The notes beneath the pieces were generated by a model, which saw only the letters and a list, made by a program, of their open reading frames with translations, was not told the origin of the DNA and did not search any database. Made by a program: the position numbers and the translations under genes. 54,142 nucleotides of DNA from Gammaproteobacteria bacterium (GTDB taxonomy: Bacteria > Pseudomonadota > Gammaproteobacteria > Eutrophobiales > Eutrophobiaceae): assembly GCA_038922795.1 (NCBI GenBank), contig JBCKWI010000005.1:1-54142 (forward strand), given 5' to 3'. Below are positions 1,327-44,679 of this stretch, in pieces (the stretch's first letter is position 1; the number at the start of each line of letters is the position of its first letter).

Positions 1327-1397
1327 CTATATTTTCTTCACAGATTACACAATCTGCTTACAGTTATAAGCGGATATTCGTGATAATGCACCTTTTC

Positions 1398-2303: not shown

Positions 2304-2371
2304 GCCTTGCGCAAATATCAGTATCTTATATGAAATAAATTTTTCTCTTCATCCATTCAATTCTAAAAACA

Positions 2372-2407
2372 GCCTGCTGGTCTTCGGATCAGTGGGTTTT
2401 TCTTTTG
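2372..2407 (+). terminator. Intrinsic terminator-like hairpin just upstream of ORF 2426
   Basis: CCTGCTGGTC-TTCG-GATCAGTGGG followed by a T-rich tract. Confidence 0.6.
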
Positions 2408-2425
2408 CCATAACGGGAGAAATTC

Positions 2426-2791: not shown

Positions 2792-2860
2792 ACACCCCTC
2801 CCCTCTCTTTTCTTTCTATTCATTCAAAACAAAACTTTCAAATCCATAGGAGAAATACTA

Positions 2861-3370: not shown

Positions 3371-3540
3371 ACCCTGTAACAGGGACTTATTTTCACTTCC
3401 ACATTTTCACAAGTTCTCAGTAACTCGGTCATTTAGATCAAGTTTGCTTAGTTCTCTATGTTCCCTGCTTCAATTCTGAAGCTATACCGATGATCACAAA
3501 CCTGATCATTTTCAATTACTTACTTTAAATCACACAAAAC

Positions 3541-3705
3541 ATGGCAACCCTAATACTCATCTTTTTATTCATTTGTTCTTTGTTTTTAAACACGCCCAGG
3601 ATGATTGCCTTAGTTGTCGGCATTGCACTTTGCTACATGTATCCCTATTACATGGTTGCTGCACTGATTCTCTACGCAATCGTCATTTTCCTTTTCAACC
3701 GTTAA
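3541..3705 (+). CDS. Small hydrophobic membrane protein (54 aa; absent from ORF track)
   Basis: MATLILIFLFICSLFLNTPRMIALVVGIALCYMYPYYMVAALILYAIVIFLFNR*; weak RBS. Confidence 0.55.
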   Translation: MATLILIFLFICSLFLNTPRMIALVVGIALCYMYPYYMVAALILYAIVIFLFNR

Positions 3706-3720
3706 TTACAGGAGAAAACC

Positions 3721-3867
3721 ATGCTATACGAAGACTGCTTACCCGAAGCAATTCAGACCGTACTTTCTCAAGAACCATCTGTAGAAGTGATTCATCAGGT
3801 TATTGAAGCTCATGCTAAATTCGTGTCAGGCATGATGAATGAGGAATCACCGGACGACTCTTGGTAG
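3721..3867 (+). CDS. Small acidic protein (48 aa; absent from ORF track)
   Basis: Strong RBS ACAGGAG; MLYEDCLPEAIQTVLSQEPSVEVIHQVIEAHAKFVSGMMNEESPDDSW*. Confidence 0.65.
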   Translation: MLYEDCLPEAIQTVLSQEPSVEVIHQVIEAHAKFVSGMMNEESPDDSW

Positions 3868-3884
3868 TGATGCCTTAATATTGT

Positions 3885-3912
3885 CTGGGTTAGCCTTAGG
3901 GCTAGCTCAGAT
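3885..3912. terminator. Stem-loop, possible terminator
   Basis: TCTGGGTTAGCC-TTAG-GGCTAGCTCAGA after the small ORFs. Confidence 0.45.
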
Positions 3913-3983
3913 AATTATTACTGGCAAAATGACGCGTTGCATTTCAAAATGACACTTATCACTAATCACAGGAAATTACATTT

Positions 3984-4661
3984 ATGGAAACTATAAACAA
4001 AGCTTTCTTTGATTATGAAACTATAACAGGCATGTTAGGTGCGATGGGAACTAACCTGAGACGCGCCATCATTCTCTTGGCTTTTATTGGTCTTATTGCT
4101 CTCAACATTGCAACTTTAGTTAGCTCAGTAGTTTATGATTTATTATATAAAGGACTTTCAAGCATGCCCATTGCTGCTATGTCCGATTTATTGGCAAATA
4201 GTCCTACAGAGAAAAACAAACGCAAAACAGCCAAACTGGAAAAAAAGCACGCTGATATTAAAGAAAAGGTGGAAATGAAATCAAGCAGTATCAAGAAAAG
4301 AACGGTTAAAATTACTGTGCTAAATGTTTCTTCAGTTGCGGCAGAAGCTATACCTTATATTGGTATTGGTGTCATCCTGGCAGTCACCGCTCTTGAAGTA
4401 AAAGCCGCCTGCGACAATATGAAGGACATGGATGAATTGGTCCAGTCTCTGGAAATCGAACCAAACCAGGAAGAGACATCCACAGTATGTGGTCTAAAGC
4501 TCCCATCAATTGAAGACTTGAAGCCTAATCTTTCATTTGATTTTGATAAATATAAAAGCAAACTTGATGAGTTATACGATGATGTAAAAGAAAAATCAGC
4601 TGAAAATTGGAGCGTTTTCAAAGATAAGGTCAATGAAGCCCATACACAATTGACTAACTAA
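3984..4661 (+). CDS. Membrane protein, two hydrophobic segments
   Basis: Hydrophobic stretches AIILLAFIGLIALNIATLV and AIPYIGIGVILAVTAL; stop lies 2 nt before the polymerase-like ATG. Confidence 0.75.
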   Translation: METINKAFFDYETITGMLGAMGTNLRRAIILLAFIGLIALNIATLVSSVVYDLLYKGLSSMPIAAMSDLLANSPTEKNKRKTAKLEKKHADIKEKVEMKSSSIKKRTVKITVLNVSSVAAEAIPYIGIGVILAVTALEVKAACDNMKDMDELVQSLEIEPNQEETSTVCGLKLPSIEDLKPNLSFDFDKYKSKLDELYDDVKEKSAENWSVFKDKVNEAHTQLTN

Positions 4662-4663
4662 TC

Positions 4664-6226
4664 ATGCAGGATATAGACGACATCCCAAGCCGCCCCTTTG
4701 GTGGTTTTGATTGGTCTGAGCATCCTGAAGTGACATCACTGATAGGCCATCTCATTGAAGGGTACATTGACTGGCTCAAAGGAAGTAATACGAACAAACG
4801 CATTAGAGACAAAGACAAGGTAAGACAACACCTGACTCATTTCGTGCTGGAAGCTTACCGTAACTACATGGCCTTACCTGAACTCTGCATGGGTGTCCAT
4901 TTAGGCAAGCACTATTACCAGGATATTGCCTGTAGACGTTACCATCCTAACCACCTCACCTACAGTCGCGTTATCAATGTCACGGACTTCCTGGTTGACA
5001 TGGATTATCTGGAAATGCCCTTTGGAAAGAGTGGCTGGAAAGCGAAACCAAGTGAACGGCGGACCACACGCTACCGGGCCACAGACAAGCTGATTTCTCT
5101 TTGTAAGGAATATGGGATTAACCGCTTCATGATTATCCCCTACCCCTATACAGAGCCTGAAATCATTATCCTGAAAGACAAGAAGGCTAAAAAGCAGTCT
5201 TCCGGGAAGGTAATGGATTACACGGATACACCCTTTACCCTGCAAGCCCGCAAGACTCTGAAGAAGATAAATACCTTCATAGGCAAACACTGTCTCAACC
5301 TGGATATCACCGATAAGCAACATCATGAACTGCAATCACGTCTACGCCACCATAATGACCCTGGTAGTGAAGCCTGTATGGACCTGACCCGTGTCCATCT
5401 AAGACGTATTTTCAATAACGGCTCTTTTGAAGAAGGGGGACGTTTCTATGGGGCATGGTGGCAACAGATCCCCTCTGATTACCGTATATTTATTACTATC
5501 AATAATAAAAAGACCTCACAACTCGATTATTCCGGTATGCATTTCTCGATTATGTATGCACAAAAGGGACTGGAATTACCCATGGAAGACCCTTATGCCT
5601 TAGAAGGGTATGACAAGGCATTACGGAGTGATATCAAGGTCGCCTTCAATGCCATCATTAACTGTCAGACTAAAAGACAAGCCATAGAGACCGTTAATCA
5701 CTACATCCAAAAAGGAGAACTCTCATCAGACCTCATTAGTGGCAAGAAAGTTATAGAGGAATTCATCAAACTACATCCGGCCATCAAAGACATGATAGCC
5801 AGTGGGGAAGGTGTCAAGGTTCACTTTATAGATTCCCAGATAGCAGAGAAGATATTGCTTAAAGGTATAGATGCCGGTATCTGTGTTCTCCCGATACATG
5901 ACGGCTTTATCTCTACTGCTTCAACAATACACATCCTCAAATGTTGGATGTTTGATGCATTTCATGAGGTGACAGGACAACCTGCTACAGTGAGACCAGA
6001 AACCTTTAACCTGTCTATTATTGAAGACGTTGGACAACATTCCCCTTACTGGGTAACTCATCCTGATGGTACGACTACATGTAACGGGCCTTTAGAAGGG
6101 AAAGCAACTGCTTACTCTACTGTGCATAATAAAGTGGCTCTGTGGAAAGGACTGACCGAGGACACCATTCATAAGACCATCAGGGATACTGTCTATAGCG
6201 AGTGGAAAGTAGTACATCATCCTTAA
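4664..6226 (+). CDS. Family-A DNA polymerase/T7-RNAP-like palm protein (TV-Pol-like); no exonuclease domain recognised
   Basis: GGRFY...WQ, motif A-like QLDYSGMH, motif B-like RSDIKVAFN, motif C-like LPIHDGFI. Confidence 0.7.
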   Translation: MQDIDDIPSRPFGGFDWSEHPEVTSLIGHLIEGYIDWLKGSNTNKRIRDKDKVRQHLTHFVLEAYRNYMALPELCMGVHLGKHYYQDIACRRYHPNHLTYSRVINVTDFLVDMDYLEMPFGKSGWKAKPSERRTTRYRATDKLISLCKEYGINRFMIIPYPYTEPEIIILKDKKAKKQSSGKVMDYTDTPFTLQARKTLKKINTFIGKHCLNLDITDKQHHELQSRLRHHNDPGSEACMDLTRVHLRRIFNNGSFEEGGRFYGAWWQQIPSDYRIFITINNKKTSQLDYSGMHFSIMYAQKGLELPMEDPYALEGYDKALRSDIKVAFNAIINCQTKRQAIETVNHYIQKGELSSDLISGKKVIEEFIKLHPAIKDMIASGEGVKVHFIDSQIAEKILLKGIDAGICVLPIHDGFISTASTIHILKCWMFDAFHEVTGQPATVRPETFNLSIIEDVGQHSPYWVTHPDGTTTCNGPLEGKATAYSTVHNKVALWKGLTEDTIHKTIRDTVYSEWKVVHHP

Positions 6227-6660
6227 TCCAGGTTAGCAGCCTTATTTTTTTAGTTACAACAACTGCAAGAATAATTTTTTCCACTAACTGTGCCCTTATA
6301 TGGCCCCTTCATTACTGGGGCAGTTATGCGCCGCGCGGCTAAGTCGATGAAACTCATCGGGCTTTTTTAGTTATTGCCCCTTTTTTCTATACCACCTTCA
6401 TTTTGGGTGACTTGCGTAGGAAATATTTCACACCAAAGTACAGTGCCTTTCCTTAATAGAAAATTTTCCCATTAACACCGCGTTAATATTTTTAATCGAA
6501 TGGAAACCTATTGGATAGGTAATTATTTTCTATCCTTCTCCGGGGCCCATGAATAGGATCCAAGCCCGTTATATTAACCCGAAAGCCCTGTTTATAACGA
6601 ATAGGAAAATTTGCTTCGGTTACATGTTATTTAATTAAACAATTATTGTGGAGCATTTAT

Positions 6661-6930
6661 ATGAAGAAAAATAAAGATAACGATGAAGACGTACAGTTAG
6701 AGAAGCTTAAGAAAGTAGCACTTATGCTGATCACTGAACAAGTAAAGGAGTTAAAGCCTGATATTGCTTACATAACGGAATACCTACTACGGCGTATCTG
6801 GAAAGACCTTTCAGAAAAGGAGCGCGGTCTTGCTGATACGGCTGTAGGCGTCTTGGCTAAGACAAACCAAATACCGCTTGTTTGTTTCTATATAACTAGT
6901 ACAGATCTGAGTCTATTTACACTTAAATAA
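6661..6930 (+). CDS. DUF1413-like small protein (copy 1)
   Basis: RBS GGAG before ATG 6661; aligns with 7213-7530 (IW..L, TNQ, TS). Confidence 0.55.
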   Translation: MKKNKDNDEDVQLEKLKKVALMLITEQVKELKPDIAYITEYLLRRIWKDLSEKERGLADTAVGVLAKTNQIPLVCFYITSTDLSLFTLK

Positions 6931-6949
6931 TTTAGCCATAACAACTCAT

Positions 6950-7007
6950 GGCCATGTGAAGTCTCTTTTGCATGGCCTTTTTTTATGTCCAATTTTATTG
7001 CATACAG
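6950..7007 (+). terminator. Intrinsic terminator plus conserved tail (copy 1)
   Basis: GGCCATGTGAA...TTTGCATGGCC-T7; near copy at 7539-7595. Confidence 0.8.
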
Positions 7008-7212
7008 AAAGATCACAAATAAAAAATAATAGAAAAATTTTCTGCTTGATTTTTTATAAACCGCGCCCATACTCAACGAAGAAATTTGTTACTGTATTAA
7101 TATAGATCGTTCATTAAGGCAAGCGCCAACCAGCTTTTTATAAGCTGTTCAAATAGCATATCAATAACTGATTTCTCCAAAATATTTTATCAACCAATTT
7201 ATTGGAGAATAC

Positions 7213-7530
7213 ATGAAAACTGTTTCAAGCAATGTTATCCACTTAAATAACCAAAGTGATGAATTAAGTTTAATACCTATCAACCAAGCTTATGAAAATG
7301 ATCCGCTAACAAAGAAACTTCTTAGATTAGCGCCCAAATACATAGAGCGACTTTCCTATAATGTAGAGTTTGAAGCTAAAACTATATTGCATGAAATATG
7401 GTGGAAGCTACCAAGAACAATAGCAGGCAGACGATTCAAATATTTGGTTTTGACTAATCAGCTTCTGCTTATATACAGGGGTGATACCTCTTCACATCAT
7501 GCATTGTATATTCGCAAATCAACTTATTAA
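7213..7530 (+). CDS. DUF1413-like small protein (copy 2)
   Basis: RBS GGAG; W..L....AGRRFKYLV...GDTSSHHALY pattern. Confidence 0.6.
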   Translation: MKTVSSNVIHLNNQSDELSLIPINQAYENDPLTKKLLRLAPKYIERLSYNVEFEAKTILHEIWWKLPRTIAGRRFKYLVLTNQLLLIYRGDTSSHHALYIRKSTY

Positions 7531-7538
7531 GTTCATTA

Positions 7539-7595
7539 GGCCATGTGAAATTTCTTTTACATGGCCTTTTTTATTTCCAATTTCATTACATACAG
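7539..7595 (+). terminator. Intrinsic terminator plus tail leading into the integrase RBS (copy 2)
   Basis: GGCCATGTGAA...TTTACATGGCC-T6, then CAGGAGG and ATG 7606. Confidence 0.8.
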
Positions 7596-7605
7596 GAGGT
7601 AATCC

Positions 7606-8795
7606 ATGACCGAAAAACCAAAACTCACCAATGAAAATATCCATACCTTTAAGCACCCACCAGAAGGAAAACGAAAAAGTGAAATTCCAGATACACTCAT
7701 CACTGGGCTCTACCTAGAGCTTAGAATGTCAGGCAAATCTACCTACTGGTTCCGCTACACCAACCCCACCACTCGCCGCCTCTCGCACATCAAAGTCGGC
7801 CCCGGTAACGCACTCACGCTCGGGCAGGCCCCGAAAGCAAGGCCCGCGCACTGCGTGCCACCCTGGCCCTCGGTGGTAACCCAAAGGCGGATTTAGAGGC
7901 CCAGCGGGATGCTCCCCTCTTCACGGTATTTATGGAAGACACCTACTTAGCGTGGACAGAGGAAACGACCAAGGAATCTTCAAGCTGTAAGAAGGAACAG
8001 CACTATCGATTGCACCTCAAGGATGAGTTCAAGGATAGACGCCTCAATCAAATCACCAAGGCCGATGTCAAAAAGCTACAGTCCAAGTTACATGCTAAAG
8101 AGCTGAGTAGTGCATCAATTAATCGCGTCATAACTACTCTGCGTCATGCGATGGGACATGCTTATGATCTGGAGCTGATTGAGAAAAATCCATGTCGGTG
8201 CATCAAGATGTATCCGGAAAATAATCAAATGGAATACTACCTGCAAGGAGATGACTTGAAGAACCTGCTCAAAGTATTGAAAACAGATAAGAACAAAATG
8301 ATTTGTTCAATCGTACTTTTCTTGTTGAGTACTGGCGCACGTCTAAATGAAGCATTGAAAGCGAAATGGTCTGAATGTGATACTCAGAATCGTGTTTGGA
8401 AAATACCCGCTCAAAATGCGAAATCAGGGAAGGTACGTTCAGTTCCATTGAATGATACAGCCATCAGTGTATTGGATAGTGTCGATACAAAAGGCGAATA
8501 TGACTATATATTCATCAATCGAAAGACAAATAATCCATACACCAATATCACGCGTTCATGGCACCGCATCAGGAAGGCGGCTGGACTACCTTTCTTGAGG
8601 CTTCATGATTTGCGTCATTCATTTGCTTCATTCTTGGTTAATTCAGGCAGGACTCTGTATGAAGTGCAACAGACACTTGGCCATAGCAATCAGGTGACCA
8701 CGCAACGGTATGCGCATCTGAGCACCAAGACGTTACAGGATGCAAGTAATACTGCTTCGGACTTTATCAATGAAGCGATGAGAGAAGCATCGTAG
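7606..8795 (+). CDS. Tyrosine integrase (arm-binding + catalytic domains), frame break near 7830
   Basis: Arm-binding pattern (D..ITGLYL.....GKSTY.FRY) in 7606-7896; the -1 frame continues KARALRATLALGGNPKAD into 7932-8795 with TGARLNE, HDLRH, LGHS and TTQRY. Confidence 0.85.
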
Positions 8796-8835
8796 GTAAC
8801 AATCTAAATGACAGGAAAAGGATTTCCTGTTGTCT

Positions 8836-9303
8836 TTATTTTTCTTTTTTTTCCTCATGTATCCAAGCATCGTGTTCTTGACACAAATCGAAGATGATCA
8901 TTAATTGCTCTAATTCAATTGCAGCTTTACTTAAAGTCCTCGCAGGTTTTGTCATGCCCTCACCATCAGTTAAACTTTTTAATAATGCATCATCTGCCAA
9001 TAGATCATGTGCTATGTAGTTTCTAAATACGACTACACTATCCAGGAAGGTAGTAAAATCTTCTCTAATCTTATTCTTCTTTAACTCCTTTGCAACTATT
9101 CCAAGAGTCCATTTTTCTATTGCTTCACCATCATATCCTAATTTTCTAACCAGTAGTCCTTTTAGGCCAATCTCCAATATCTGTGTCTTTCCCATAAACA
9201 TTGCATACTGTTCTAAAAAACTTAAATGATCTTGTTTAGAAAGCCTTTCAAAAGCAAGCTCGGCTACATTAATTCCTTCTTCTGTATCTTTTTTAATTAT
9301 CAT
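8836..9303 (-). CDS. HEPN-like protein
   Basis: RX4H motif (RNYIAH); upstream Q.LE and TLG elements typical of HEPN families. Confidence 0.55.
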   Translation of the reverse strand: MIIKKDTEEGINVAELAFERLSKQDHLSFLEQYAMFMGKTQILEIGLKGLLVRKLGYDGEAIEKWTLGIVAKELKKNKIREDFTTFLDSVVVFRNYIAHDLLADDALLKSLTDGEGMTKPARTLSKAAIELEQLMIIFDLCQEHDAWIHEEKKEK

Positions 9304-11675: not shown

Positions 11676-14600
11676 TCAAACAAACCCTTCAGTGCATCCT
11701 CGAGGCCATCCTTTAACTGATCTTCCGTTTTCTTCTTTTTTTTGGTTGCCGGTTGTTCAGTTGTGGCCGCTGGTTGTTCCTGTGTCGCTGGTTGTTCCTG
11801 TGTCGCTGTTGGCTGCACCTGTGTCGCTGTTGGCTGCACCTGTGTTGCTGTTGGTTGCGCCTGTGTCGCTGGTTGCTCAACTGTAGTTTCAGCAGGAGCA
11901 GTAGCGGGGGGCTTGGCTGTCTCGATGCCCAGTGATTTTTCCAGAAATCCTTTCAATTTTTCTTCCCCGCCTTTCTGCAACAGAACCTTGGCGATATCTC
12001 CCACATCAGGTTTACAATCCGGCTTGCTTAACCGGCCACGGCATTTCACTGGTATCTCATAACCACCGAGGTTGTAGCGTTTTTCACCCTTGGTTGCGCT
12101 GGTTTCATCAACATTGACTTTCATGTCATATTTGATGGTTTCATCATTCAGATTTGCCAGGACTCCTTTCCCTGTTAATGTAAAGCCGGTTGCTGTCATT
12201 AACATGTCCTTGTTGTGCACAATTCCCTGGTTGATATCCAGCGTCCCGCTCAGTTGCTCGAATCTGGTTTCTCCTTCCGAGTTTACATTACCAAAACGTT
12301 TACTCTCAATCATGATTTCAACCTGTTCAAGCGTCTTGTTGACATCAACCCCTCGCAATATGCCATCTTTGATACTGAATTTCCCCTTACCCATCATGCT
12401 GCGTTTGATCTGGGTTGCATCATTTCCGCTGGCAGTCAACTGATCAAACGATATGTCCGCGATTCCCACGAGGGGGCTTTCCGGTTGCTGCAGGTAATCC
12501 TTGAGCAAGGGATCCAGCAGTACACCCGTCAATTGTGTATTGATCACAATATTGGGCATTTTACCCCTGGCATCCATGGCAACTGTGCCCTGATATTTAC
12601 CCTGATAGAGTTCGGCAGCGGCGGGCTCCAGACGGATATCCCCATCTCTGGCCTTGATAGCCAGTTTCACGTTTGTCATTTTTGCGTTGGACAGGATCAA
12701 TTGCCCGATGAGCAGTTCACCGTTGAGCCTGAGAGAGCGCAACGTATCCAGCGGTAATTCCGTTGCGGCAGCCCCGGCAGCACTCTCGGGGGTAACCGGC
12801 TTACCCTTGACGGCGGGGGGAAGATACCGATCCGCATTAATCGAATCGATGCCTATTCCAAACTGTATATCCGGCTGGGTAAATTTCGCGATGGACAAAT
12901 TACCTTTCAATTGGGTTTCGTCCAGTTGTAATGTCAAATCCTTCAGGCTCAGACTGTCTGCACTTCCCGTGAAACCCGCCTGTAATGCTACTTTATTAAA
13001 CACATTTTTATCCGCGGTTTCCGGGAGGGTCTGGTTTAACTGTTGCGCAAATTGGCGCAGGTTGAATTCCGCGACTGACAAATCTCCGCTAAACGCTGGC
13101 TTGTCCATTATCTGACTGGCACTAATATTACTCTTGACGTTCAGCCCCAACCCCTGCAGGGACAGATTTTCAATTACCAGGGTCTGTTTATCCAGATTGG
13201 CACGGGTATTGGCGCTAAAGGTCATAGCGACCGGCGAATTCGGGATCTGCTTTCCGGCAAAGGTGGCCTTGACCTGTAATGGGTTGAGGACAAAATCACC
13301 CCCGGTTCCCTTGATCCCGGCATCAACAGAAACTGCCTGCATCACTTCACCTAGTCCGGCCTGACCAAATGCGTTCAGCACCCCGGCCAATTTTTCACCC
13401 TTAAGCAAAAGCTTCCCGTCGATACTGGCATTGTTTGAATTCATGTTCCTGGCATCTAACTGACCATTAACACTGACACCCATAGTCTTTGCTGCCAGAG
13501 TGGGTATATTGATATTTCCCTTGTTCAGATCAGCATCAAAATCAGCGGAGATATCAAACGCCCGGTCCGGCACTTTGGCCAGACGCTGACCGTATTCTCT
13601 GAGTTTCGGTTCCTTGCCGGTTTCAAACTGACCGATCACCTGCATCAAGGCAGGCAGGTCCGGACCGGTTGCTTTAAACTTGCCTTTGGCTGATGGTGTT
13701 TTGGTTTGAATATTGGCAGCATCGATCTCGCCATTGATGGTTGCGCCGAACATCTTTGCATCCAGGCTGGAGATTTTGATATTTCCCTTCTCAAGATCAG
13801 CATCAAGATCAGTCTTGATATCAAACGACCGGTCCTGAAGACCGGCCAGTTGTGTGGCAAGTGGTTCGATACCGGCCAGCTTGAATACCAGGGCAAGATC
13901 ATTACCCTTGGCATCGAGTTTGGCATTGACCACCGGCTTCCCGCTCAGGAAATTACCCGCATTGATATTGCCTGCAACATTCAGCCCCAGTCCCTGTAAT
14001 GTCATGTTGTTAACCGCCAGTGTTTCTTTTTCAAGATTCATTCTGGTCTCTGCATTCAGTGTGACATCCGCCGGTGAGTTCGGGATCTGCTTACCTGCAA
14101 ATGTGGCCTTGACTGACAGGGGGTTCAGTATGATCTCTTTCCCTGCACCACTGATACCAGCATCGATATTAATCACCTGCAAGACTTCACCAAGCGCCTT
14201 CTGATCAAAGGCCGTCAACACAGCGGCGAGTTTTTCTCCGTGCAATGACAATTTGCCCTCCACCTTGCCGGTGCTGGTATTCATGTCTTTCGCGTCCAGT
14301 TGTCCGTTTGCAGTAATGCCGAGCGCCTTGACCGCAAGTGTGGGAACATGAATATTCCCGCCCCCGAGATCCGCATCAAATTCCGCGGAGATATCAAAAG
14401 ATTTTTCAGCCACTTTGGACAAACGCTGGCCATAGTCCTTGAGTTTAGGTTCCTTGCCGGTCTCAAACTGGCCAACAACCTGCATTAATGCAGGCAGATC
14501 CGGGCCGGTTGCCTTTAACATTCCTTTGGCTGAAGGGGTGCTTTGGAGATTACTGACATCCACCTGCCCCTGAATATTGGCGCCCAGTAATTTTGCGTCG

Positions 14601-27911: not shown

Positions 27912-28725
27912 GTCATTGCGAGCGCAGGTCTACAGGAAGTACAGAATTTCGGTGGAGAGTCTAGCCGGGAGCAGGAACCGGGTCGAACAGGGGGTTGTTT
28001 ACTGGATGCTGGTCGCTACGGACTGACGCATAGGGATATGCTAATGCCGCGATCACAAGGAGGTGAATGAGCGGCCCTGTCCTTTCGCGGCATTTCCCAT
28101 ATCCTATGGGTCGTTTTCACCAGCATGATGGTAAAGATACTTAATCAGAGGTTCCTTAGAACATTCTTCGCGTGCAGGGCACGCTCCTACAGGATGACGA
28201 CCTATGTAGGAGCACGCCCTGCGTGCGACAAAAATCATTCGCGGTAGTGGTCCGCTCCTGCAATGAAGATTTCTCGCTACGCTCGAAATGACAAACTGCG
28301 GTCGAAATGACAAACATTTTCTGTCATTTCGAGCGCAGGTCTACAGGAAGTACAGAATTTCGGTGGAGAGTCTAGCCGGGAGCAGGAACCGGGTCGAACA
28401 GGGGGTTGTTTACTGGATGCTGGTCGCTACGGACTGACGCATAGGGATATGCTAATGCCGCGATCACAAGGAGGTGAATGAGCGGCCCTGTCCTTTCGCG
28501 GCATTTCCCATATCCTATGGGTCGTTTTCACCAGCATGATGGTAAAGATACTTAATCAGAGGTTCCTTAGAACATTCTTCGCGTGCAGGGCACGCTCCTA
28601 CAGGATGACGACCTATGTAGGAGCACGCCCTGCGTGCGACAAAAATCATTCGCGGTAGTGGTCCGCTCCTGCAATGAAGATTTCTCGCTACGCTCGAAAT
28701 GACAAATCATTTTCTGTCATTTCGA
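27912..28725. repeat. 411-bp tandem duplication of a composite REP/MITE cluster
   Basis: 27919-28295 matches 28330-28706; contains a GTAG-type REP pair, an IS5-like TIR and nested ~51-bp modules. Confidence 0.9.
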
Positions 28726-30771: not shown

Positions 30772-31661
30772 TTATTTCTTTTCCTCTTCAAGCCGCTCCA
30801 GCCGTTGCATCAAAAATAGCAATTCATGTTCATCCTTGATTGCGCCACTCTCCAGCAAACCTCCTATCAATATTTTGGCGCTTTCAATTTCATGCATGTC
30901 TTCCAGCACATAAATAGGCATCTGCTTTACCCAGTGAGGAACATTCTCGACTGTCACGTGTCCGGCCAGCGCCTCTGCATAGCGCAGCGCCAGTGGTAGA
31001 TCATTTAATCTGTGCTTGGCCACATAAACAGCATGAGCAAGCGAAGGCCAGCGCCGGTTTGGATCCTCAAAAAACTTCTCATACACAAACTCAAGCATTT
31101 GCCTTTGCCTTGTTTCATCTGGCACCTGGCTATAGACACGGCTGGCGGCAAGCAACGGGTATTGTCCTCTCCTATCCAGCACCAGAATATTATCCAGCCA
31201 GCCTGTGACCTTGTTATAGTCAAGTTCCCGGAACGGGATGCTGATACCCGGTTGATTATCAAATGCCTGTAACCAGAGCATCAGCATTTTTGCAAGGGCA
31301 ACTGGATCACCCAAACTGGAAAGCTGTAATTGTTCTTTTGATAACGGTTCGGGCAATGGTCTTGCCGAAGGATCAAGCAACGGTCTCGCTGCGTGCCATG
31401 CAATCTGCGCAGATAGCGCAACAACAAGAATAATCAAAACCACGCGCGGGACATCTGCTACTGACCGTTCATTACTATTAGGGAACCTCTGAATAAGTCT
31501 AAAAATTCTTTGAATCGTCATTACTGGCACCCTCCGGGTATAAACTCCTGCCAGTATCCCCTTCCCCCTTCCAGGGGGAAGGTACGACTGCATGGATGCA
31601 GGCGGTGAAGATACTTATTCAGAGCTTCCTTAGTTATCCATGCAGGTAACAATAATTGCAT
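30772..31661 (-). CDS. Membrane-anchored hypothetical protein of the pilus/ABC locus, interrupted near codon 10 by a MITE
   Basis: Removing 31482-31629 plus one TTAG gives MQLLLPAWITNSNERSVADVP...; in-frame restart ATG at 31521. Confidence 0.75.
31482..31629. mobile_element. 148-bp MITE with IS5-like TIRs and TTAG TSD
   Basis: GGAACCTCTGAATAAGT / ACTTATTCAGAGCTTCC, flanked by TTAG on both sides. Confidence 0.82.
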
Positions 31662-31663
31662 TA

Positions 31664-32434
31664 TCAAAAATTCTTTCTGTAAAGGTCGAACAATGCCGCC
31701 GCGGAAAGCAAACTGACATATATCACGCTTTGTATAATGATAACGGGTAAATCGCCTGCATTTCCGGAACCGTATACCAGCCATTCCGTCCGGGTAAAAC
31801 CGGCAAGATCCGGCAAAACATACGCAATCAGATCGATAGCTTTATTCATAAACTGCTGTGACAAGGCTGTTGATTCAAGTATCGGGCTGCGACTTAAAAG
31901 CTGAATGGTACTGATACTTCTTGCCAATAGATAAAATGCTACTACGACAGTGAAGGCAGTTGTTATGTTTCCGAATGTGAAAAGACACAGCAGACAAAGC
32001 GCAATAATGATAAATAACTCACACATCAATGACACAACCCATAAAGCAACTTGGGTAAATTCAGAATAAAGCAGGAGAGGCAAACTCAGGAGAAGCGAAA
32101 AAACCACTGTCAGAAGAAAAAACCCGGAAAGCTTGCCAAGATAATAAACGTATCTGGATAAAGGCAGCGATATGATCATGTCCACTGTTTTATCATTGAA
32201 TTCCCTGACAACACTGGTAATTACAAACAGACTGATAACGAAGACAGTCGCCAGACGCATGACAAAACCCACCAGCCCTCCCTGCACCTGATGAGTTTCA
32301 GTTATGGCAAGTTCACCGGCAAACTGCCCTAGTGCAAATACACAGACTATACCAATCAAACCGAGGACAAACAGGCGGTTTTTAATCGCTTCAAGGAAAG
32401 TATATTTAGCAATCGTGATAACCGGGTGTTTCAT
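31664..32434 (-). CDS. ABC-2 type transporter permease
   Basis: IAKYTFLEAIKNR, LPLSR..Y.LGK, multiple TM segments, F.RKNF end. Confidence 0.88.
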   Translation of the reverse strand: MKHPVITIAKYTFLEAIKNRLFVLGLIGIVCVFALGQFAGELAITETHQVQGGLVGFVMRLATVFVISLFVITSVVREFNDKTVDMIISLPLSRYVYYLGKLSGFFLLTVVFSLLLSLPLLLYSEFTQVALWVVSLMCELFIIIALCLLCLFTFGNITTAFTVVVAFYLLARSISTIQLLSRSPILESTALSQQFMNKAIDLIAYVLPDLAGFTRTEWLVYGSGNAGDLPVIIIQSVIYVSLLSAAALFDLYRKNF

Positions 32435-32452
32435 AATGACATTGTATAAATG

Positions 32453-32851
32453 CTAAAGCCTCCGTGCATCAGGCAATACTGCCATCTTTCGATCAAGGGT
32501 GAGGGTCACAAGGCCGGAACGGCAGTAATCATCCGCAATAAGGCGATCAAGCAATCCACAACCAGTCCTGGTTTCAAGGATTTTGAGTACATTATTACCA
32601 TTAAGAGGAGCCACCAGCCCGCTACTAAAAACCTGGGTAAGTGCAGTGCGGGCATCTCCCCTGGATACACCATAATGGTGTTGAAGAACGATATATGCTT
32701 CACCAATGACCTGGTTTGAAACAAATGTTTCTGCATCTTCCTGTTCTATGAGAAGCGTTAACTTACGAACACTGTCTTCGAAACCTGCCTTGGGATCACC
32801 TGTAAGCAGGCGAACAAGGATAGAAGTATCAATCCCGAAGCGAGGGGTCAT
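32453..32851 (-). CDS. vapC: PIN-domain toxin VapC
   Basis: GIDTSILVR, conserved E, LLDRLI, TLD. Confidence 0.85.
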   Translation of the reverse strand: MTPRFGIDTSILVRLLTGDPKAGFEDSVRKLTLLIEQEDAETFVSNQVIGEAYIVLQHHYGVSRGDARTALTQVFSSGLVAPLNGNNVLKILETRTGCGLLDRLIADDYCRSGLVTLTLDRKMAVLPDARRL

Positions 32852-33071
32852 GCGGTTTTTTTCGGAAGGTATTCAGATTAAACCTGCCTTTACCTTTACG
32901 TATTTTATTGCGTAATGGGGCAAGGCGTGAGAGATCGATACGGCGGGGCCGGAGAATATAACCTTCTGTGCCTTCACGTAATTCAAGACTATCACCGGGT
33001 TGTACTCCAAGCGAATCCAGCACCCGGGCCGGGAAAGTGACCTGACGTTTAGCTGTAATTTTGATAATCAT
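32829..33071 (-). CDS. vapB: AbrB/MazE-family antitoxin
   Basis: KITAKRQVTFP..V.DSLGVQPGD. Confidence 0.85.
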   Translation of the reverse strand: MIIKITAKRQVTFPARVLDSLGVQPGDSLELREGTEGYILRPRRIDLSRLAPLRNKIRKGKGRFNLNTFRKKPHDPSLRD

Positions 33072-33306
33072 GGTAATACCTGCATTTCACCTTACTGAAA
33101 GGATAGTTTAGTAAGGCATATATGTCAAACCAGATGTACATCCATCCCTATTAACCCGCTGGTAAAGAAGCGGTTTTTAATCGCTTCAAGGAAAGTATAT
33201 TTAGCAATCGTGATTACGGGATATTTCATAGTAGAATGCGTTAAATTATGTTACGAGATCAATTATATACTATGGTGTCCATGTTATTCACATTCAGAGA
33301 GTATTC

Positions 33307-33477
33307 ATCCCTCCCCCTTTAAGGGGGACGACTGCATGGATGCAGGAGGTAGGATGAAGCAGGATGCCAGAGTCGAGGACGCGGTGGGGGTCAAGAATAT
33401 CAAACCCGCGGTTTTCGCCCCCATCCTGACCCCCGTATAAAGTACGGGGCAGGCTTCCCCCGTCAAGTGGGAAGGTT
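33307..33477. repeat. CCCTCCCCC-type palindromic repeat containing a 48-bp module (33329-33376)
   Basis: TCCCCCTTTAAGGGGGA[module]GG...; second arm CCCCATCCTGA...TTCCCCCGTCAAGTGGGAAG. Confidence 0.75.
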
Positions 33478-33537
33478 TTTGTTTCTTAATTTTTATGTTG
33501 AATTAACTATACATACTATTTCTTAAATTCCTGATCT

Positions 33538-35208
33538 ATGACCAGTGTAATGCAACCCATCATCAACCGGCGGGATTATTTTATTCTCGCCGCCATGCTG
33601 GGTTTCCTGCATGCCGCGCTCCTGATTGATTTTGGCAGTGCAATTTCCAGCGCCCTGCTGCTGATACATCTCGGGTTTTTCCTGCTCTGGCAACCTTTAC
33701 AAAAAAGTGAAGAAAAATATGCCTGGTATAATGGCATCATTTTCATAGGGCTAATGCTGGCGTTTGCCTATTGGGTCAACTGGTGGTTGATCTTTGCGTG
33801 GCTGATTTTGCTGATAGGGATAGCCGGTGGCCGGGTTGTTATCAACCGGACGGAAAGGTATGTTCTCTTTCTGGCCATGATTTTCCTCGTCTCTGAATTG
33901 TTAATTATTGCTATTCCCAGCCTGTTTACTGTCGTTTACGGTAATCCGGTTTTTAATCCTCTTAAATACGCCATCATTTTCATCCCATTGGCATTGCCAC
34001 TCTTTCCACGTCCTTATGCAAGGAAAACGGAATTGTCCGTTGATTTGTTACATGCCATCACGGCCTCGCTGCTGGTAGGCCTCCTTGCACTTGGCAGTCT
34101 GGTCATTATGTATCACAGCGGCACGGATTATTTCACTTCCCTGATTTATTCCCTCCTCGCGATCGGCACCGGCCTGCTATTGATCAGCTGGCTGTTATCA
34201 GCGCATACAGGTTTCGGGATGTTGTCCCAGCTATGGTCCAGATCGCTGTTGAATATCGGCACCCCCTTTGAACAATGGCTTGCGGAGTTATCCGCTCTTA
34301 AAGATCAACACGAATCTCCGGCAGATTTTCTGGAAGCCGCCATTGAAAAACTTGCCGCCCTGCCCTGGATATCCGGTGTTAAATGGCATATATCCGATCA
34401 ACTGAATATTCATGGAATCAAGACCAGCCATGCAATCAAACTCAGCATCAAAACATACCCTGTCACCCTTTATACCCGCGTCCCCGTTGGTGGCGCGCTA
34501 TTGTTACACTGCAAACTACTCATGAAACTGATTGAATATTTCTATATGGCCAAGGTGAATGAGCGTGAACTGGCGAACCGGGCACATCTGCAGGCCATAT
34601 TCGAGACCGGTGCCCGTATCACACACGATATTAAAAACCTTCTGCAATCCATGCATTCCATGGTCACCATACTGCAGGCGGACACGACTGAGACAGACTC
34701 AAAGTCTGTTCTTATCCTTAAAAAACAATTCCCCTATTTTATCCAGCGCCTCGAACAGGCCATGGATAAACTCCAGACGCCGCAGCAGTTCAGCAAGGAA
34801 GAGATCTATCTGATGGACTGGTGGGGGGAATTAAATGCACACTACAAGGACTACCATATTGATTTCCATGCGGAGATAGACAGCAATCCATTGATCCCGT
34901 TTGACCTGTTTAACAGTATCACGGGAAACCTGCTCGAAAATGCCATCACAAAACGCAAAGGCGAGCCTGATATCAGGATCTCCGCAAAAATAAATATCAA
35001 GGGTGACGCGATCAGCTTGATAGTTTCTGATACCGGCAAGGCCATCGATGAAAAAACTGCCGCCATGTTATTCAAGGAATCTCTGAAATCAGATAACGGC
35101 CTCGGTATAGGTCTGCTTCAGGCTGCCAAGCAGGCCGAATCCATGGGTTACACACTCAGCCTGAAATATAATTTCACCGGTAATGTGTGTTTTGAGTTAC
35201 ACAATTAG
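33538..35208 (+). CDS. Membrane sensor histidine kinase
   Basis: Many TM segments; THDIKN, NLLENA, DTG, GLGIGL. Confidence 0.9.
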   Translation: MTSVMQPIINRRDYFILAAMLGFLHAALLIDFGSAISSALLLIHLGFFLLWQPLQKSEEKYAWYNGIIFIGLMLAFAYWVNWWLIFAWLILLIGIAGGRVVINRTERYVLFLAMIFLVSELLIIAIPSLFTVVYGNPVFNPLKYAIIFIPLALPLFPRPYARKTELSVDLLHAITASLLVGLLALGSLVIMYHSGTDYFTSLIYSLLAIGTGLLLISWLLSAHTGFGMLSQLWSRSLLNIGTPFEQWLAELSALKDQHESPADFLEAAIEKLAALPWISGVKWHISDQLNIHGIKTSHAIKLSIKTYPVTLYTRVPVGGALLLHCKLLMKLIEYFYMAKVNERELANRAHLQAIFETGARITHDIKNLLQSMHSMVTILQADTTETDSKSVLILKKQFPYFIQRLEQAMDKLQTPQQFSKEEIYLMDWWGELNAHYKDYHIDFHAEIDSNPLIPFDLFNSITGNLLENAITKRKGEPDIRISAKINIKGDAISLIVSDTGKAIDEKTAAMLFKESLKSDNGLGIGLLQAAKQAESMGYTLSLKYNFTGNVCFELHN

Positions 35209-35244
35209 CATGATCATAATACCATAACCTGCATAACATACCTT

Positions 35245-35541
35245 TCAAAGATTCTTTAACTGTTCAGGTAACAGGCGTGCACTATGGCGTATTGTCAAAA
35301 TATCTATTCGATCAGGAAGGATACGGTAGATAATCCGATACCGGCCCTCGTATATTTCCCGAATATCGTCCCGTTGATATTTAGACACTTGTTTTCCACT
35401 ACGTGGATGCTCTGCTAGCACCTGCACTCTACGGGTTATTCAATCAATAAAACGTAAAGCATTAGAGGGTTGATCTTCTGCTATGTAATTATAGAGTTGT
35501 TGTAATCAATACCGGCTCTTATGCGTCCAATTGACCTTCAT
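35245..35541 (-). pseudogene. RelE/ParE toxin with two in-frame TGA codons
   Basis: MKVNWTHKSRY*LQQLYNYIAEDQPSNALRFID*ITRR...YRIIYRI...ILTIRHSAR. Confidence 0.85.
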
Positions 35542-35732
35542 TCAGGTAAACCAAACTGCTGACGCACAGTTGTATTATCTACAACCCGGCCTGCATCACT
35601 ATCTTCCAATCCTTCCTCAATATCTTGCATAACTGAAAGTTCATAAATCAGGTCTTTCCAGCTCGCTTCATCCGGTAATTGGTCTATCAACTGATGTGCC
35701 GCTTGTTTAATTGTATGGGTTGGCGTACTCAT
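35538..35732 (-). CDS. Antitoxin upstream of the RelE/ParE toxin
   Basis: LIDQLPDEASW..L.Y.L...IEEGL.D..AGRV; ATGA overlap with the toxin. Confidence 0.8.
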   Translation of the reverse strand: MSTPTHTIKQAAHQLIDQLPDEASWKDLIYELSVMQDIEEGLEDSDAGRVVDNTTVRQQFGLPE

Positions 35733-35762
35733 CTCAAACCTCATCTGGTTTTACTGTTTATA

Positions 35763-35938
35763 GAACCTATCTTAAAATTGATTTTCTGCTTTTTTGACAG
35801 AATCAATAACCGATGACACCTTCCCCCTGGCAGGGGGAAGGCCGGGATGGGGGTTGAGTTTCAGCCATGTTTTATATTTCACCCCCACCTCAATCCTCCC
35901 CCTTCAAGGGGGAGGAAGTTTAATTTTGAGATAGGTTC
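35763..35938. mobile_element. 176-bp MITE (GAACCTATCTYAAAATT TIR, TA flanks), empty form
   Basis: Homologue of 44456-44679 lacking the 48-bp insert. Confidence 0.85.
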
Positions 35939-36220
35939 TACAATATTTTACACTATCTCACTGCTCTACACAGGTCCATGTGCATATCTTTTATATTCGT
36001 CATATGGCAACTGGCCTATCTTAACAAGGGAAAAGGTTATTCTTGAATTGATGGAACCTTATAGTCAAACCCAAGTAGTCCTTTGGGTTACACACTCAGC
36101 CTGAAATATAATTTCACCGGTAATGTGTGTTTTGAGTTAAGAAAATTAAATGACTATTGAAGCGTTACCAGATGGGCGCTATCCTTCACGTATTGATTTA
36201 ATCTTTAATAACCTACAGCC

Positions 36221-36511
36221 ATGAAACCTTCAAATTCACTCAAGCAACACAGGGCAGCTATCCGGCAAATCATTAAACGCCACCATGCAGATAACGCCAG
36301 AATCTTTGGCTCAGTTCTAAAGGGTAATGATAAAGAGGGGAGTGATCTGGATATTATTGTTGATCCAACCCCCTTAACCACGCTAATGGACATAGGTGCT
36401 ATGCGCATCGAGTTACGTAACCTTCTTGGTGTTGAGGTCGATGTATTGACTCCAAATTCTCTCCCCGGCCACTTTCGTGAACAGTTGCTCCGGGACGCAC
36501 AACCTGTATGA
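36221..36511 (+). CDS. Minimal nucleotidyltransferase antitoxin (MntA-like)
   Basis: IFGS..KG.D..GSDLDI, VDVLT. Confidence 0.9.
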   Translation: MKPSNSLKQHRAAIRQIIKRHHADNARIFGSVLKGNDKEGSDLDIIVDPTPLTTLMDIGAMRIELRNLLGVEVDVLTPNSLPGHFREQLLRDAQPV

Positions 36512-36870
36512 ATTCTGAAGAGCGCGCCAGACTTAAAGATTACCTGGGCCACATACTTCTCGCAATTGACCGCATTAATCTGTATATCGATGAGATGAAC
36601 GAAATAGCATTTACTCAGGATCAGCGTACCCAAGATGCTGTAATCTGTAATTTTTAGATTATAGGTGAAGCCTCAAGAAACATAACAAAACACTATCCTG
36701 AATATGCAGCAAAGAACTCACATGTGCCGTGGGACATTGCATATGAAATGAGGAATGTTCTGTCACATGGTTATTTCGGAGTTGATATCGGTATTGTCTG
36801 GAAAACGATTGAAAATGATCTGCCTATACTTAAAGCTCAAATAAACGGATTATTACAAACAACCAACTGA
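36508..36870 (+). pseudogene. HEPN/DUF86 toxin (HepT-like) with an internal TAG at codon 50
   Basis: DAVICNF*IIGEA (usually DAVIRNFEIIGEA); RNVLSHGYF motif; TAG at 36655-36657. Confidence 0.88.
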
Positions 36871-36877
36871 AAACAGC

Positions 36878-37120
36878 ATGGCTGCATTGAATTATCTCTC
36901 TATAAATGACGAATTTACCCCGTTTGTATTGAGCGAATACATCAAGAACCCGGTTCGGGTTATGCGCATCGAAGCTGGCCTGAACCAGGCACAACTTGCA
37001 CGCCGCTTAGGTGTCACACAAGGTTATATCAGCCGGATCGAAGGCCGCAATTATCCTGTAAGTGAAAAATTGCTTAAACGGGTAAACGATGTTCTGAAAG
37101 TTGCTCGTAAAAAGAAATAA
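36878..37120 (+). CDS. Xre-family HTH protein (orphan antitoxin-like)
   Basis: R.EAGLNQAQLARRLGVTQGYISRIE. Confidence 0.8.
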   Translation: MAALNYLSINDEFTPFVLSEYIKNPVRVMRIEAGLNQAQLARRLGVTQGYISRIEGRNYPVSEKLLKRVNDVLKVARKKK

Positions 37121-37278
37121 TACTGCCAGGCCATAAATCAGTTCGGCAAAATCCAATGATTTTCCCTGAAATATAATTTCACCGGTAATGTGTGTTTTGA
37201 GTTACACAATTAGACAAGACAATAATATCGATCCTGTCATTTCGAGTGAATACGAGAAATTTTATTATAAAATGAATA

Positions 37279-44220: not shown

Positions 44221-44269
44221 CGGGACCCTTGTTTACCGTTTGTTCACGGATACTACTTCAACCTGCTGC

Positions 44270-44435
44270 GCCTTCCCCCTGGCAGGGGGAAGGTTGGGAT
44301 GGGGGTTGAGTTTCAGCCATTCCTGAGATTTCACCCCCACCTCGACAACTGTTCCCGGCGTTGTTCTCGGTCTCCGCTCCAGACTCGACTCTACCTCCTC
44401 CTTCCTTGGAGTCGTCGCTTCGCTCGGAATGACAA
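44270..44435. repeat. Chimeric repeat: MITE core + half 48-bp module (44342-44366) + full module (44367-44414) + REP arm
   Basis: Left part repeats 44510-44579; ends TCGCTTCGCTCGGAATGACA. Confidence 0.8.
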
Positions 44436-44455
44436 ATGAATATTCATGTTAATTA

Positions 44456-44679
44456 GAACCTATCTCAAAATTAGTTTTCCGCTCTTTTGACGGAAGCAAT
44501 AATCCACTGCGCCTTCCCCCTGGCAGGGGGAAGGTTGGGATGGGGGTTGAATTTCAGCCATTCCTGAGATTTCACCCCCTCGACAACTGCTCCCGGCGTT
44601 GTTCTAACTCCTGCATCCATGCAGTCGACCTCAATCCTCCCCCGTCAAGGGGGAGGAAGTTTAATTTTGAGACAGGTTC
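44456..44679. mobile_element. 224-bp MITE = 176-bp form plus a 48-bp module (44580-44627)
   Basis: Same TIRs as 35763-35938; length differs by exactly 48. Confidence 0.88.

Follow-up and report, generated by a model that had tools for sequence, protein, structure and literature searches.

The question addressed here is how a toxin-antitoxin pair with no recombinase gene in or beside it came to lie between two copies of the start of a host gene. It is raised by a contig from a gammaproteobacterium of the family Eutrophobiaceae (assembly GCA_038922795.1, contig JBCKWI010000005.1), of which the 54,142 nucleotides (nt) analysed are referred to as the window, and in which a vapBC pair separates the beginning of an ABC-2 family permease gene from a second, orphan copy of that beginning. 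Our preferred answer, to which we would assign a probability of roughly 0.6, is that the pair was inserted or exchanged by the homologous recombination of the host, without an integrase, through a Campbell-type or ends-in event within a 45-nt core of the duplicated gene start; the gene-end copy would serve as the address, and toxin-antitoxin addiction would account for retention. This answer builds on direct observation of the anatomy of the locus, of empty and occupied sites, of a mosaic in the repeat copies, and of the recurrence of the same design elsewhere.

An earlier note on this DNA, made from its letters alone, had described 61-base-pair (bp) direct repeats 795 bp apart and proposed that the vapBC cassette duplicates and replaces the 5' end of the permease gene. 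The repeats are borne out by a repeat search of the window (32349-32435 and 33144-33230; 87 nt, 84% identity, spacing 795 bp) and by a self-BLAST of the whole assembly, in which their core spans 67 nt at 91% identity; just two copies of the permease-start repeat exist across the 1.92-Mb assembly. Beyond the 61 bp, a fainter homology runs to about codon 31 (+93), which is clear only against L144, a metagenome contig described below. All genes of the locus (permease, vapC, vapB and the orphan open reading frame, ORF) lie on the minus strand, with vapC and vapB between the repeats; the insert is 701 bp and holds these two genes alone, together with a promoter-like region of its own and an 18-nt leader. 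The orphan copy (minus strand, ATG at 33229) reads MKYPVITIAKYTFLEAIKNRFFTSGLIGMDVHLV*, and the attached copy (minus strand, ATG at 32434) opens the permease of 256 amino acids (aa) with MKHPVITIAKYTFLEAIKNRLFVLG... The similarity of the orphan to the permease start at the protein level (E = 2e-8 in a whole-genome search, 3e-10 by tblastn) is too strong for a chance match. Within the first 20 codons the copies differ at four positions (two in TAT/CAC and one each in CCC/CCG and GTA/GTT), three of them third codon positions, exactly as had been counted before. The orphan also carries a 1-nt deletion near codon 30, and the permease itself is 91% identical to its orthologue in G001, the closest genome and a member of the same genus, over 256 of 256 residues with no stop. 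The features of the locus are, by coordinate:

31664..32434, minus strand: ABC-2 family permease gene (PF12698, E = 1.8e-8), intact, 256 aa, directly behind vapC
32342..32435, minus strand: attached repeat copy, from permease position -1 to about +93, diverged in codons 3-5 and native-looking from codon 6 (comparison of the copies with G001)
32436..32452, minus strand: cassette-borne leader between the vapC stop and the permease ATG, replacing the native 5' untranslated bases (comparison with G001 and L144)
32453..32851, minus strand: vapC, PIN-domain toxin, 132 aa (PF01850, 25.3 bits against a cut-off of 23.6)
32829..33071, minus strand: vapB, AbrB/MazE-type antitoxin, 80 aa, directly upstream of vapC (PF04014, TIGR01439)
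33072..33136, minus strand: left edge of the cassette, with TTGACA at 33128-33123, a 17-nt spacer and TATCCT ending at 33100 (consensus scan)
33125..33229, minus strand: orphan copy of the permease start, an ORF of 34 codons preceded by the native promoter region, native-looking in codons 1-20 and diverged in codons 21-29 (comparison of the copies)
33231..33537, no strand: native intergenic region of the divergent kinase and permease genes, matching G001 next to the orphan ATG and a contig of metagenome run X5 over 33241-33328, with a repeat resembling repetitive extragenic palindromic (REP) sequences at about 33290-33350
33538..35208, plus strand: sensor histidine kinase gene (PF02518), divergent from the permease; its 3' end is the tag of an adjoining cassette array
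35144..37210, plus strand: three copies of the kinase 3' end (35144-35208, 36084-36139 and 37149-37210; 56-65 bases) bracketing two cassettes

That the cassette is an insertion into the permease start, as had been proposed, is supported by sites that lack it. Permease orthologues are present in 37 of 61 related genomes, the window's own included, and the loci of 29 relatives were fetched for comparison. In G001 the kinase and permease genes stand 306 bp apart, without vapBC, whereas the corresponding gap in the window is 1103 bp, of which 308 bp separate the orphan start from the kinase gene. In 21 of the 29 loci the kinase gene lies next to the permease in divergent orientation, at a distance of 57-306 bp; the remaining eight have no kinase gene within the locus, and none of the 29 contains vapB or vapC (tblastn, E up to 1e-3). 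An empty site was found also in a metagenome: in the contig of run X5, position 32435 is joined directly to 33241 and the cassette is absent, the contig continuing over 33241-33328 with a single difference in 88 nt. Alignment of orthologous permease starts with their upstream regions, the check that had been recommended for this locus, shows that the G001 bases directly 5' of the permease ATG match those preceding the orphan ATG and not those preceding the attached copy. Both copies of the 87-93-bp repeat align to the single start of G001, which has no insert. The insert shows what, following Furuta et al. (2010), defines a long-target-duplication insertion: it is a whole module (restriction and modification genes for those authors, a toxin-antitoxin pair here), is shorter than 20 kb, holds no other mobility gene, and is flanked by a direct duplication of more than 30 bp. 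The expectation that the permease had been placed behind vapBC is also confirmed, since the attached start directly follows vapC and the native promoter has been left with the orphan.

An independently occupied site is provided by L144, the single close relative recovered in a scan of metagenome contigs for VapC (86% protein identity). Its 1000 bases are collinear with window positions 33268-32271 (87.4% identity over 999 nt) and present, in order, native upstream bases, an orphan start, vapB, vapC and an attached start leading into the permease. The junctions are those of the window, with orphan homology extending to about +93 and giving way to the same promoter region, and in both sequences some 18-20 cassette-specific bases precede the second ATG. 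Over the bases compared, the permease part of L144 is identical to that of G001, so that a G001-like lineage exists both with and without the cassette. The two L144 copies are native-looking, matching G001, and differ from each other at 3 of 93 positions. An L144-like cassette occurs as well in contigs of runs X1, X2 and X6. Two further signals in these contigs were set aside. A "go-back" joint from 33137 to 32346, seen in X1 and X6 contigs and considered as evidence for a circular form, was rejected as an alignment effect, because the native-looking orphan of an L144-like strain aligns better to the attached copy of the window. The depth of contigs is lower over the cassette than over its flanks (11.7 versus 51-56 in X1, 5.8 versus 18-22 in X2, about 3-4 versus 36-38 in X6); this would fit a mixed population and was not counted as a sign of one, contig depth being no measure of the share of cells.

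The detailed distribution of differences among the repeats carries most of the information on how the insert arose. Five copies of the permease start were compared: the orphan and attached copies of the window, the same two of L144, and the native start of G001. Differences of the window copies to G001 are:

20 nt upstream of the ATG: window orphan 3/20, window attached 10/20
Codons 1-5: window orphan 1/15, window attached 4/15
Core, codons 6-20 (45 nt): window orphan 1/45, window attached 1/45
Codons 21-31 (33 nt, ungapped): window orphan 14/33, inflated by the 1-nt deletion near codon 30 (codons 21-29 alone, 9/27); window attached 2/33

The first two lines substantiate the suggestion that the 5' end of the working gene was replaced. 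Taken as a whole, the parts of the repeats that adjoin the cassette are diverged while the outer parts are native-looking, and the two copies form a reciprocal mosaic. This would be the pattern expected if a block consisting of the orphan tail, vapBC, the new leader and the first codons had entered by crossing-over in the core. Within the core the window copies show no difference between them or from the L144 orphan, and are one position removed from G001 and from the attached copy of L144; since DNA conservation of the core does not reach far (9-35 of the 45 positions differ in other genera), this identity fits a tract of recombination or conversion. In the 20 nt upstream, the attached copy differs from the L144 cassette at only 4 of 20 positions. 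The four changes in the opening of the attached copy cluster in codons 3-5 of a gene that is at work.

Several comparisons bear on whether the diverged edges represent another allele of the gene. Coding differences of the orphan to G001 are distributed unevenly, with 2 in the 60 nt of codons 1-20 and 9 in the 27 nt of codons 21-29 (Fisher p = 3e-4). Third codon positions account for six of the nine changes in the orphan tail (p = 0.04) and for nine of the 13 changes scored overall (p = 0.009), a bias suggesting that the changes arose in a working gene elsewhere. At four-fold degenerate sites, vapB and vapC have diverged between window and L144 by 0.33 and 0.39, respectively, as against 0.22 for the permease and 0.28 for the kinase between window and G001 (pooled, 39/108 versus 79/308, p = 0.047). 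The boundaries of the mosaic also differ between the two occupied lineages available for comparison: they flank the core in the window and lie near the ATG and at +93 in L144, where cassette-like sequence is limited to the leader and the stretch beyond +93. Such variation fits homologous recombination or conversion better than a site-specific crossover at a fixed point. The idea put forward at the outset, that the two copies are allelic starts and that the cassette came from a relative with its own gene start, therefore receives support from the orphan mosaic, the third-position bias and the excess divergence of vapBC at four-fold sites; the counts are small, and neutral decay of an old orphan combined with gene conversion of the core provides a competing description, which is weighed below. 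Each test draws on few sites, and together they make a moderately strong case that falls short of proof.

The cassette itself is compact. In an alignment of 14 family members, the VapC acidic residues D8, E51 and D102 are invariant and D120 nearly so; the protein has no NCBIfam match, and no match in sequence among solved structures. The vapB and vapC genes overlap by 23 nt, and vapB and vapC stay side by side in 80 of 80 genome loci. At the level of its genes, the window pair is a predicted type II VapBC module, with a PIN toxin bearing the acidic residues and an overlapping antitoxin gene upstream. The promoter region at the left edge is conserved in L144; the promoter-like site found there is a pattern only, one being found where 2.8 were expected from shuffled sequences. 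It is overlapped by a palindrome (CCTTACT...AGTAAGG, 33090-33116) that is likely to be the operator of VapB. The 18 nt that separate vapC from the permease ATG hold no terminator-like site on the minus strand, and the permease could plausibly be transcribed together with vapBC. The unit is minimal, with about 65 nt ahead of vapB and 18 nt after vapC. Among inverted pairs of at least 20 nt in 31000-35000, the sole one (31479-31632) is away from the cassette ends; the insert has neither the terminal inverted repeats nor the short target duplication of a transposon, insertion sequence (IS) or miniature inverted-repeat transposable element, its duplication being about 93 bp. Nor is there a recombinase in or beside it. 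The nearest gene matching PF00589 lies at 7932-8792, about 23.6 kb off (one of 11 such matches genome-wide), and no serine recombinase is present among the window ORFs scanned, a genome-wide search for that class not having been made.

From these observations we infer a route of the following kind. Incoming DNA would have brought with it the permease start of a related lineage, and crossing-over would have taken place within the 45-nt core (codons 6-20). The incoming form could have been a small circle, entering by a single Campbell-type crossover, or a linear piece both of whose ends matched the target (ends-in). One product would be the orphan start, with a native left and a foreign right part, remaining behind the native promoter; the other would be a working hybrid start, with a foreign left and a native right part, placed behind vapC, by which the permease gene would be restored. 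The same repeats would permit precise loss of the insert, and its transfer between relatives. The insert would then be kept since loss of the toxin-antitoxin pair is punished by post-segregational killing, and addiction of this kind would account as well for the frequency of toxin-antitoxin pairs among repeat-bracketed inserts.

A number of points weigh against this route. The argument for a foreign allele rests on nine changes in 27 nt and four in 15 nt; neutral decay at the host divergence of 0.22-0.28 for four-fold sites would by itself be expected to give about 6-8 changes in 27 nt, and if the core is left out as gene-converted the contrast within the mosaic would shrink to 1/15 versus 9/27. 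The native-looking copies of L144 would be explained equally by plain target duplication without a foreign tag, and the excess divergence of vapBC over host genes at four-fold sites is marginal. No donor was found: among the 29 orthologues none matches the diverged edges better than G001 does (G025, a genome of a different genus, comes within 2 of 15 positions in codons 1-5, a stretch too short to use), and vapC has a match in 12 of 126 family genomes, the window's own included, with a best identity of 61%, at another locus. A recombinase acting in trans is conceivable, given 11 tyrosine-recombinase matches in the genome. No circle, excision product or recombination intermediate was seen among the assembled contigs, where rare forms could not show, the sequencing runs being available as assembled contigs alone, each with 5-7% of the sampled words. 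Finally, the assembly is 72.6% complete in 127 contigs, and strain mixing at repeats is possible; yet the same structure occurs independently in L144 and in the X1, X2 and X6 contigs.

Other parts of the genome show that the design is not peculiar to the permease. A genome self-BLAST gave 51 direct-repeat pairs of 30-400 nt with at least 80% identity and a spacing of 400-3000 bp, several of them overlapping; 20 regions cover these pairs, and their 144 ORFs were scanned with Pfam. At least 13 repeat-bracketed intervals in the 1.9-Mb genome, window included, contain Pfam toxin-antitoxin genes, representing PIN, ParE, YafQ, Gp49/HigB with HTH, HigB, Phd, AbiEii, the SocA/Panacea domain, MNT/HepT and "unstable antitoxin" families. 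Two further intervals contain putative pairs (DUF4160 with DUF2442, and DUF5615). At six loci the repeats are ends of neighbouring genes that carry an annotation, namely the permease 5' end, the 3' ends of the kinase, cytochrome c, pmbA and PNP_UDP_1 genes, and the 3' region of a DHFR gene; the remaining repeat pairs comprise paralogues, intragenic repeats, REP-like elements, an IS200-like gene and unannotated ORFs. The 13 families of flanking repeats have only chance matches of 9-15 nt in common and no shared motif, in agreement with the earlier contention that unrelated repeats argue against a single site-specific integrase. With regard to integron gene cassettes, each of which bears an attC site and belongs to an intI/attI platform, what is observed here is that the flanking repeats are pieces of genes next to the cassettes and have no sequence in common.

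The nearest of these arrays adjoins the permease-start cassette and, with its unrelated repeat, is the first instance to which that cassette had been called the second. Of the two cassettes bracketed by the three kinase 3' ends, the first holds a 60-aa ParE-like remnant and an antitoxin-like ORF, and the second an MNT gene, a HepT gene split by a stop (36508-36654 and 36724-36867) and an 80-aa HTH remnant. The copies of the kinase end are reciprocal hybrids, the first and second sharing their left part and the first and third their right part including the stop codon, a pattern that two successive insertions into one tag would give. In G001 a different cassette (RelE-like toxin with an HTH antitoxin) lies between two copies of that genome's own kinase end, and its antitoxin is homologous to the 80-aa HTH remnant of the window. 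The kinase 3' end is, as read from these arrangements, a hot spot for cassettes and their turnover.

Lateral movement of one cassette is indicated. The HigBA cassette at the folA end (L054; contig C118, 1548-2203) is 89.6% identical over 656 nt to one in G025 (L224; contig C194), the permease of which is only 65% identical to that of the window, a disparity that points to lateral movement of the cassette. The G025 copy sits amid other toxin-antitoxin pairs, near a 33-nt orphan piece of a folA end. Longer assemblages were also noted. On contig C11 (31202-36749; L048 and L062) three cassettes follow one another (Gp49/HigB with HTH, AbiEii with a partner, and HigB with HTH), each between direct repeats, one repeat occurring three times (32208, 35181 and 36701). 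On contig C1 (58934-70792) the 122-nt cytochrome c 3' end that flanks a SocA/Panacea cassette is present in four copies within 12 kb (58934, 65689, 67088 and 70671), which may represent a longer array of cassettes. On contig C48 (10551-12462; L052) 165-nt repeats with 95% identity flank a ParE/Phd cassette that interrupts an accessory gene midway, dividing it into front and back parts of 201 and 235 aa. No match to the C48 region exists in five relatives, and duplicated ends at pmbA, PNP or folA are absent from the relatives examined (G001, G002, G014 or G024); G001 contigs end at the folA and PNP sites, and synteny beyond pmbA is lost. For these four cassettes (pmbA, PNP, folA and C48), the relatives examined offer no clean pair of empty and filled sites.

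A wider sample of the vapBC family points the same way. VapC relatives of 60-77% identity, from many phyla, provided 274 genome and 145 metagenome stretches, the 80 best of either kind being retained. Only loci flanked by 300 bp or more in each direction were scored, and a locus counted as bracketed when direct repeats of at least 30 nt lay within 400 bp of each end of the pair. By this measure 12 of 136 vapBC loci (about 9%) are bracketed, as against 2 of 599 control intervals shifted by 1.2-2 kb (p = 7e-8), two of the 12 being the same contig in both collections and other between-collection duplicates having been kept. The repeats again coincide with parts of neighbouring genes: in two alphaproteobacterial assemblies (L106 and L130) they match the first 190 or so bases of a gene for a DUF454 membrane protein, in L145 the last 77 bases of prfC, and in two assemblies of Vicinamibacterales (L122 and L135) the 5' region of a gene resembling metallopeptidase genes, while one vapBC locus (L069) lies between three copies of a transfer RNA (tRNA) 3' end.

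Of the alternatives to host recombination with a foreign tag, the one that survives best, though we judge it unlikely, is a single old long-target-duplication event followed by vertical inheritance, precise loss of the cassette in G001 and the X5 strain, and local decay, with gene conversion preserving the core. It would explain L144 well: both copies there are native-looking with 3/93 differences, its cassette junctions coincide with those of the window, vapB and vapC DNA is 85-90% identical between window and L144, close to the 87-90% of host genes, and the 9/27 of the orphan tail is near the host divergence of 0.22-0.28 at four-fold sites. It would explain the window mosaic less well. Decay confined to one part of the orphan (2/60 versus 9/27, p = 3e-4), the placement of 6/9 changes of a supposedly dead tail at third codon positions (p = 0.04), the clustering of four changes in codons 3-5 of the working copy, and a divergence of vapBC at four-fold sites above that of host genes (p = 0.047) are all awkward for it, and the near-identity of the L144 copies after such divergence would itself need conversion or a recent event. 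An improbable reading, in our estimate, makes the repeats attL and attR of a site-specific tyrosine-recombinase element, aimed at the gene start, that brought a replacement for it, its integrase having since been lost, as in a decayed island resembling a cis-mobilisable element, or acting in trans. Replacement of a gene end with flanking direct repeats is the classical footprint of integrase-borne islands, the homologous vapBC locus between tRNA 3'-end copies (L069) is reminiscent of it, and the 11 PF00589 matches could supply an enzyme. This scheme is opposed by the absence of an integrase within 23 kb, by a minimal unit that would have to be trimmed exactly by decay, and likewise at 13 or more intervals, by 13 repeat families without a common core motif, and by mosaic boundaries that differ between window and L144. 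A local tandem duplication of the permease start unrelated to the arrival of vapBC, which had been named as the outcome that would overturn the proposal, draws on copies that are direct, close together and almost identical in L144, and is very improbable because no duplicated start is seen where the cassette is missing: in G001, in the X5 contig and at 21 of the 29 loci of relatives the start is single and the space too small for a cassette, and the same repeat-plus-cassette design recurs at unrelated genes, tied to the position of toxin-antitoxin pairs (12/136 versus 2/599).

Homologous recombination at a gene-end copy is thus the reading that we carry forward, and it invites a tentative generalization, which we regard as possible rather than probable. 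Toxin-antitoxin pairs, together with restriction-modification systems, might be enzyme-free mobile cassettes for which a copy of a conserved host gene end is the sole address, inserting into the corresponding gene of any relative by ordinary homologous recombination with repair of that gene, leaving via the repeats, and retained by addiction; such a process would work across phyla and account for a sizeable share of lone toxin-antitoxin islets.

Several further features of the window are recorded here. A 384-nt segment without a long ORF stands in tandem at 27912-28706 (99.7% identity, spacing 411), just after a Na+/H+ exchanger gene and before an ABC ATPase gene. The PF00589 gene mentioned above is apparently one part of a split tyrosine integrase, with an arm-binding ORF at 7606-7893 and the catalytic ORF at 7932-8792; it borders about 9 kb (1-9300) of ORFs without family matches, a region that may be the remnant of an island, and similar repeats consisting of a hairpin and a T-run are found at 6950 and 7539. 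REP-like palindromic repeats occur at 31581-31606, 33290-33350, 35800-35930 and 44266-44605. In the ORF at 30772-31593 the opening 23 codons consist of a REP-like repeat present on at least eight other contigs, and the true start of this gene is for that reason probably near codon 39. At 11750-11893, six tandem units of 21 nt (once 18 nt) mark the junction of an AsmA-family gene and the next ORF.

How chromosomal toxin-antitoxin pairs enter genomes without a mobile-element gene is an unsettled question, as a recent study (Belot et al. 2026, Mol Biol Evol, PMC13617665) notes. The present locus offers footprints at the level of single bases, including empty and filled sites, common junctions in two lineages, and a reciprocal mosaic, and the distinction between variable and fixed crossover points affords a test by which recombination of the host could be told from the action of a hidden recombinase. 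Should the counts reflect how widespread the footprint is, toxin-antitoxin pairs and restriction-modification systems would be linked by the manner in which they enter genomes, and it would be clear why addiction modules make up so many of the unstable repeat-flanked inserts. For the host, a transporter gene now stands behind an autoregulated toxin-antitoxin promoter, and its expression may change.

The closest known parallel is the insertion of restriction-modification systems with long (about 100 bp) and variable target duplications and no other mobile element, described by Furuta, Abe and Kobayashi (2010, NAR 38:2428, PMC2853133), who left the mechanism unproven and proposed a role for DNA breakage; such insertions are also a subject of PMC3874152. 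Here as there, a small addiction module is inserted unaccompanied by any further gene for mobility. Nobusato et al. (2000, Gene 259:99) reportedly belongs to the same literature. The likeness extends to the direct repeats, which measure tens to hundreds of bp and correspond to one copy in an insert-free relative, and to their variation by site, some overlapping gene 3' ends. The differences are that the cargo here is a type II toxin-antitoxin pair, that the cassette-adjoining parts of the repeats resemble a diverged allele of the target, and that the repeats restore a gene start, with arrays of several cassettes between copies of one gene end. Moreover, members of the VapC family are RNases, and a drive from breakage of DNA by the element itself would for this reason not apply.

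In Campbell-type insertion-duplication, a non-replicating circle bearing a piece of a target gene integrates by a single crossover, as suicide plasmids do. The model predicts the present layout, with two direct hybrid copies in which resident and incoming parts are reciprocal, and precise loss by the reverse event; unlike suicide plasmids, this would be a natural case with just 45-93 bp of homology and an inferred circle of about 795 bp. Integrase-borne islands and cis-mobilisable elements occupy gene ends by means of tyrosine recombinases. They resemble the cassettes in their flanking direct repeats, restored target gene end and tandem arrays at one site, and differ from them in that here the unit has no integrase, the repeats are unrelated from site to site, and the crossover boundaries vary. 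In the rhs, contact-dependent inhibition (CDI) and type VI effector-immunity loci, successive insertions push old 3'-end copies downstream, much as the kinase array at 35144-37210 has displaced end copies; those arrays, however, swap the toxic tip of the gene itself, whereas in the present case the gene end does no more than mark the address, and a toxin-antitoxin pair unrelated to it forms the cargo.

The lone toxin-antitoxin "islets" between core genes (PMC13617665) are the remaining comparison. In that paper they are described as patchy among relatives and devoid of mobile-element genes, their integration is called unclear, and their spread is attributed to homologous recombination in the core genes on either side. 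The authors favour transposons or integrases as the vehicle of arrival, with subsequent streamlining, and report one case of a duplicated 24-bp res-like palindrome; the term "direct repeat" does not occur in the text searched. Set against islets so described, the footprint found here is a 50-270-bp duplicate of the neighbouring gene's own end. A full-text search, subscription journals and supplements aside, returned no description of a long-target-duplication footprint for toxin-antitoxin cassettes. The restriction-modification version of the process is known; the present locus shows long-target-duplication insertion with toxin-antitoxin cargo, tagged by gene starts and gene ends and bearing signs that the tags have diverged as alleles of their targets.

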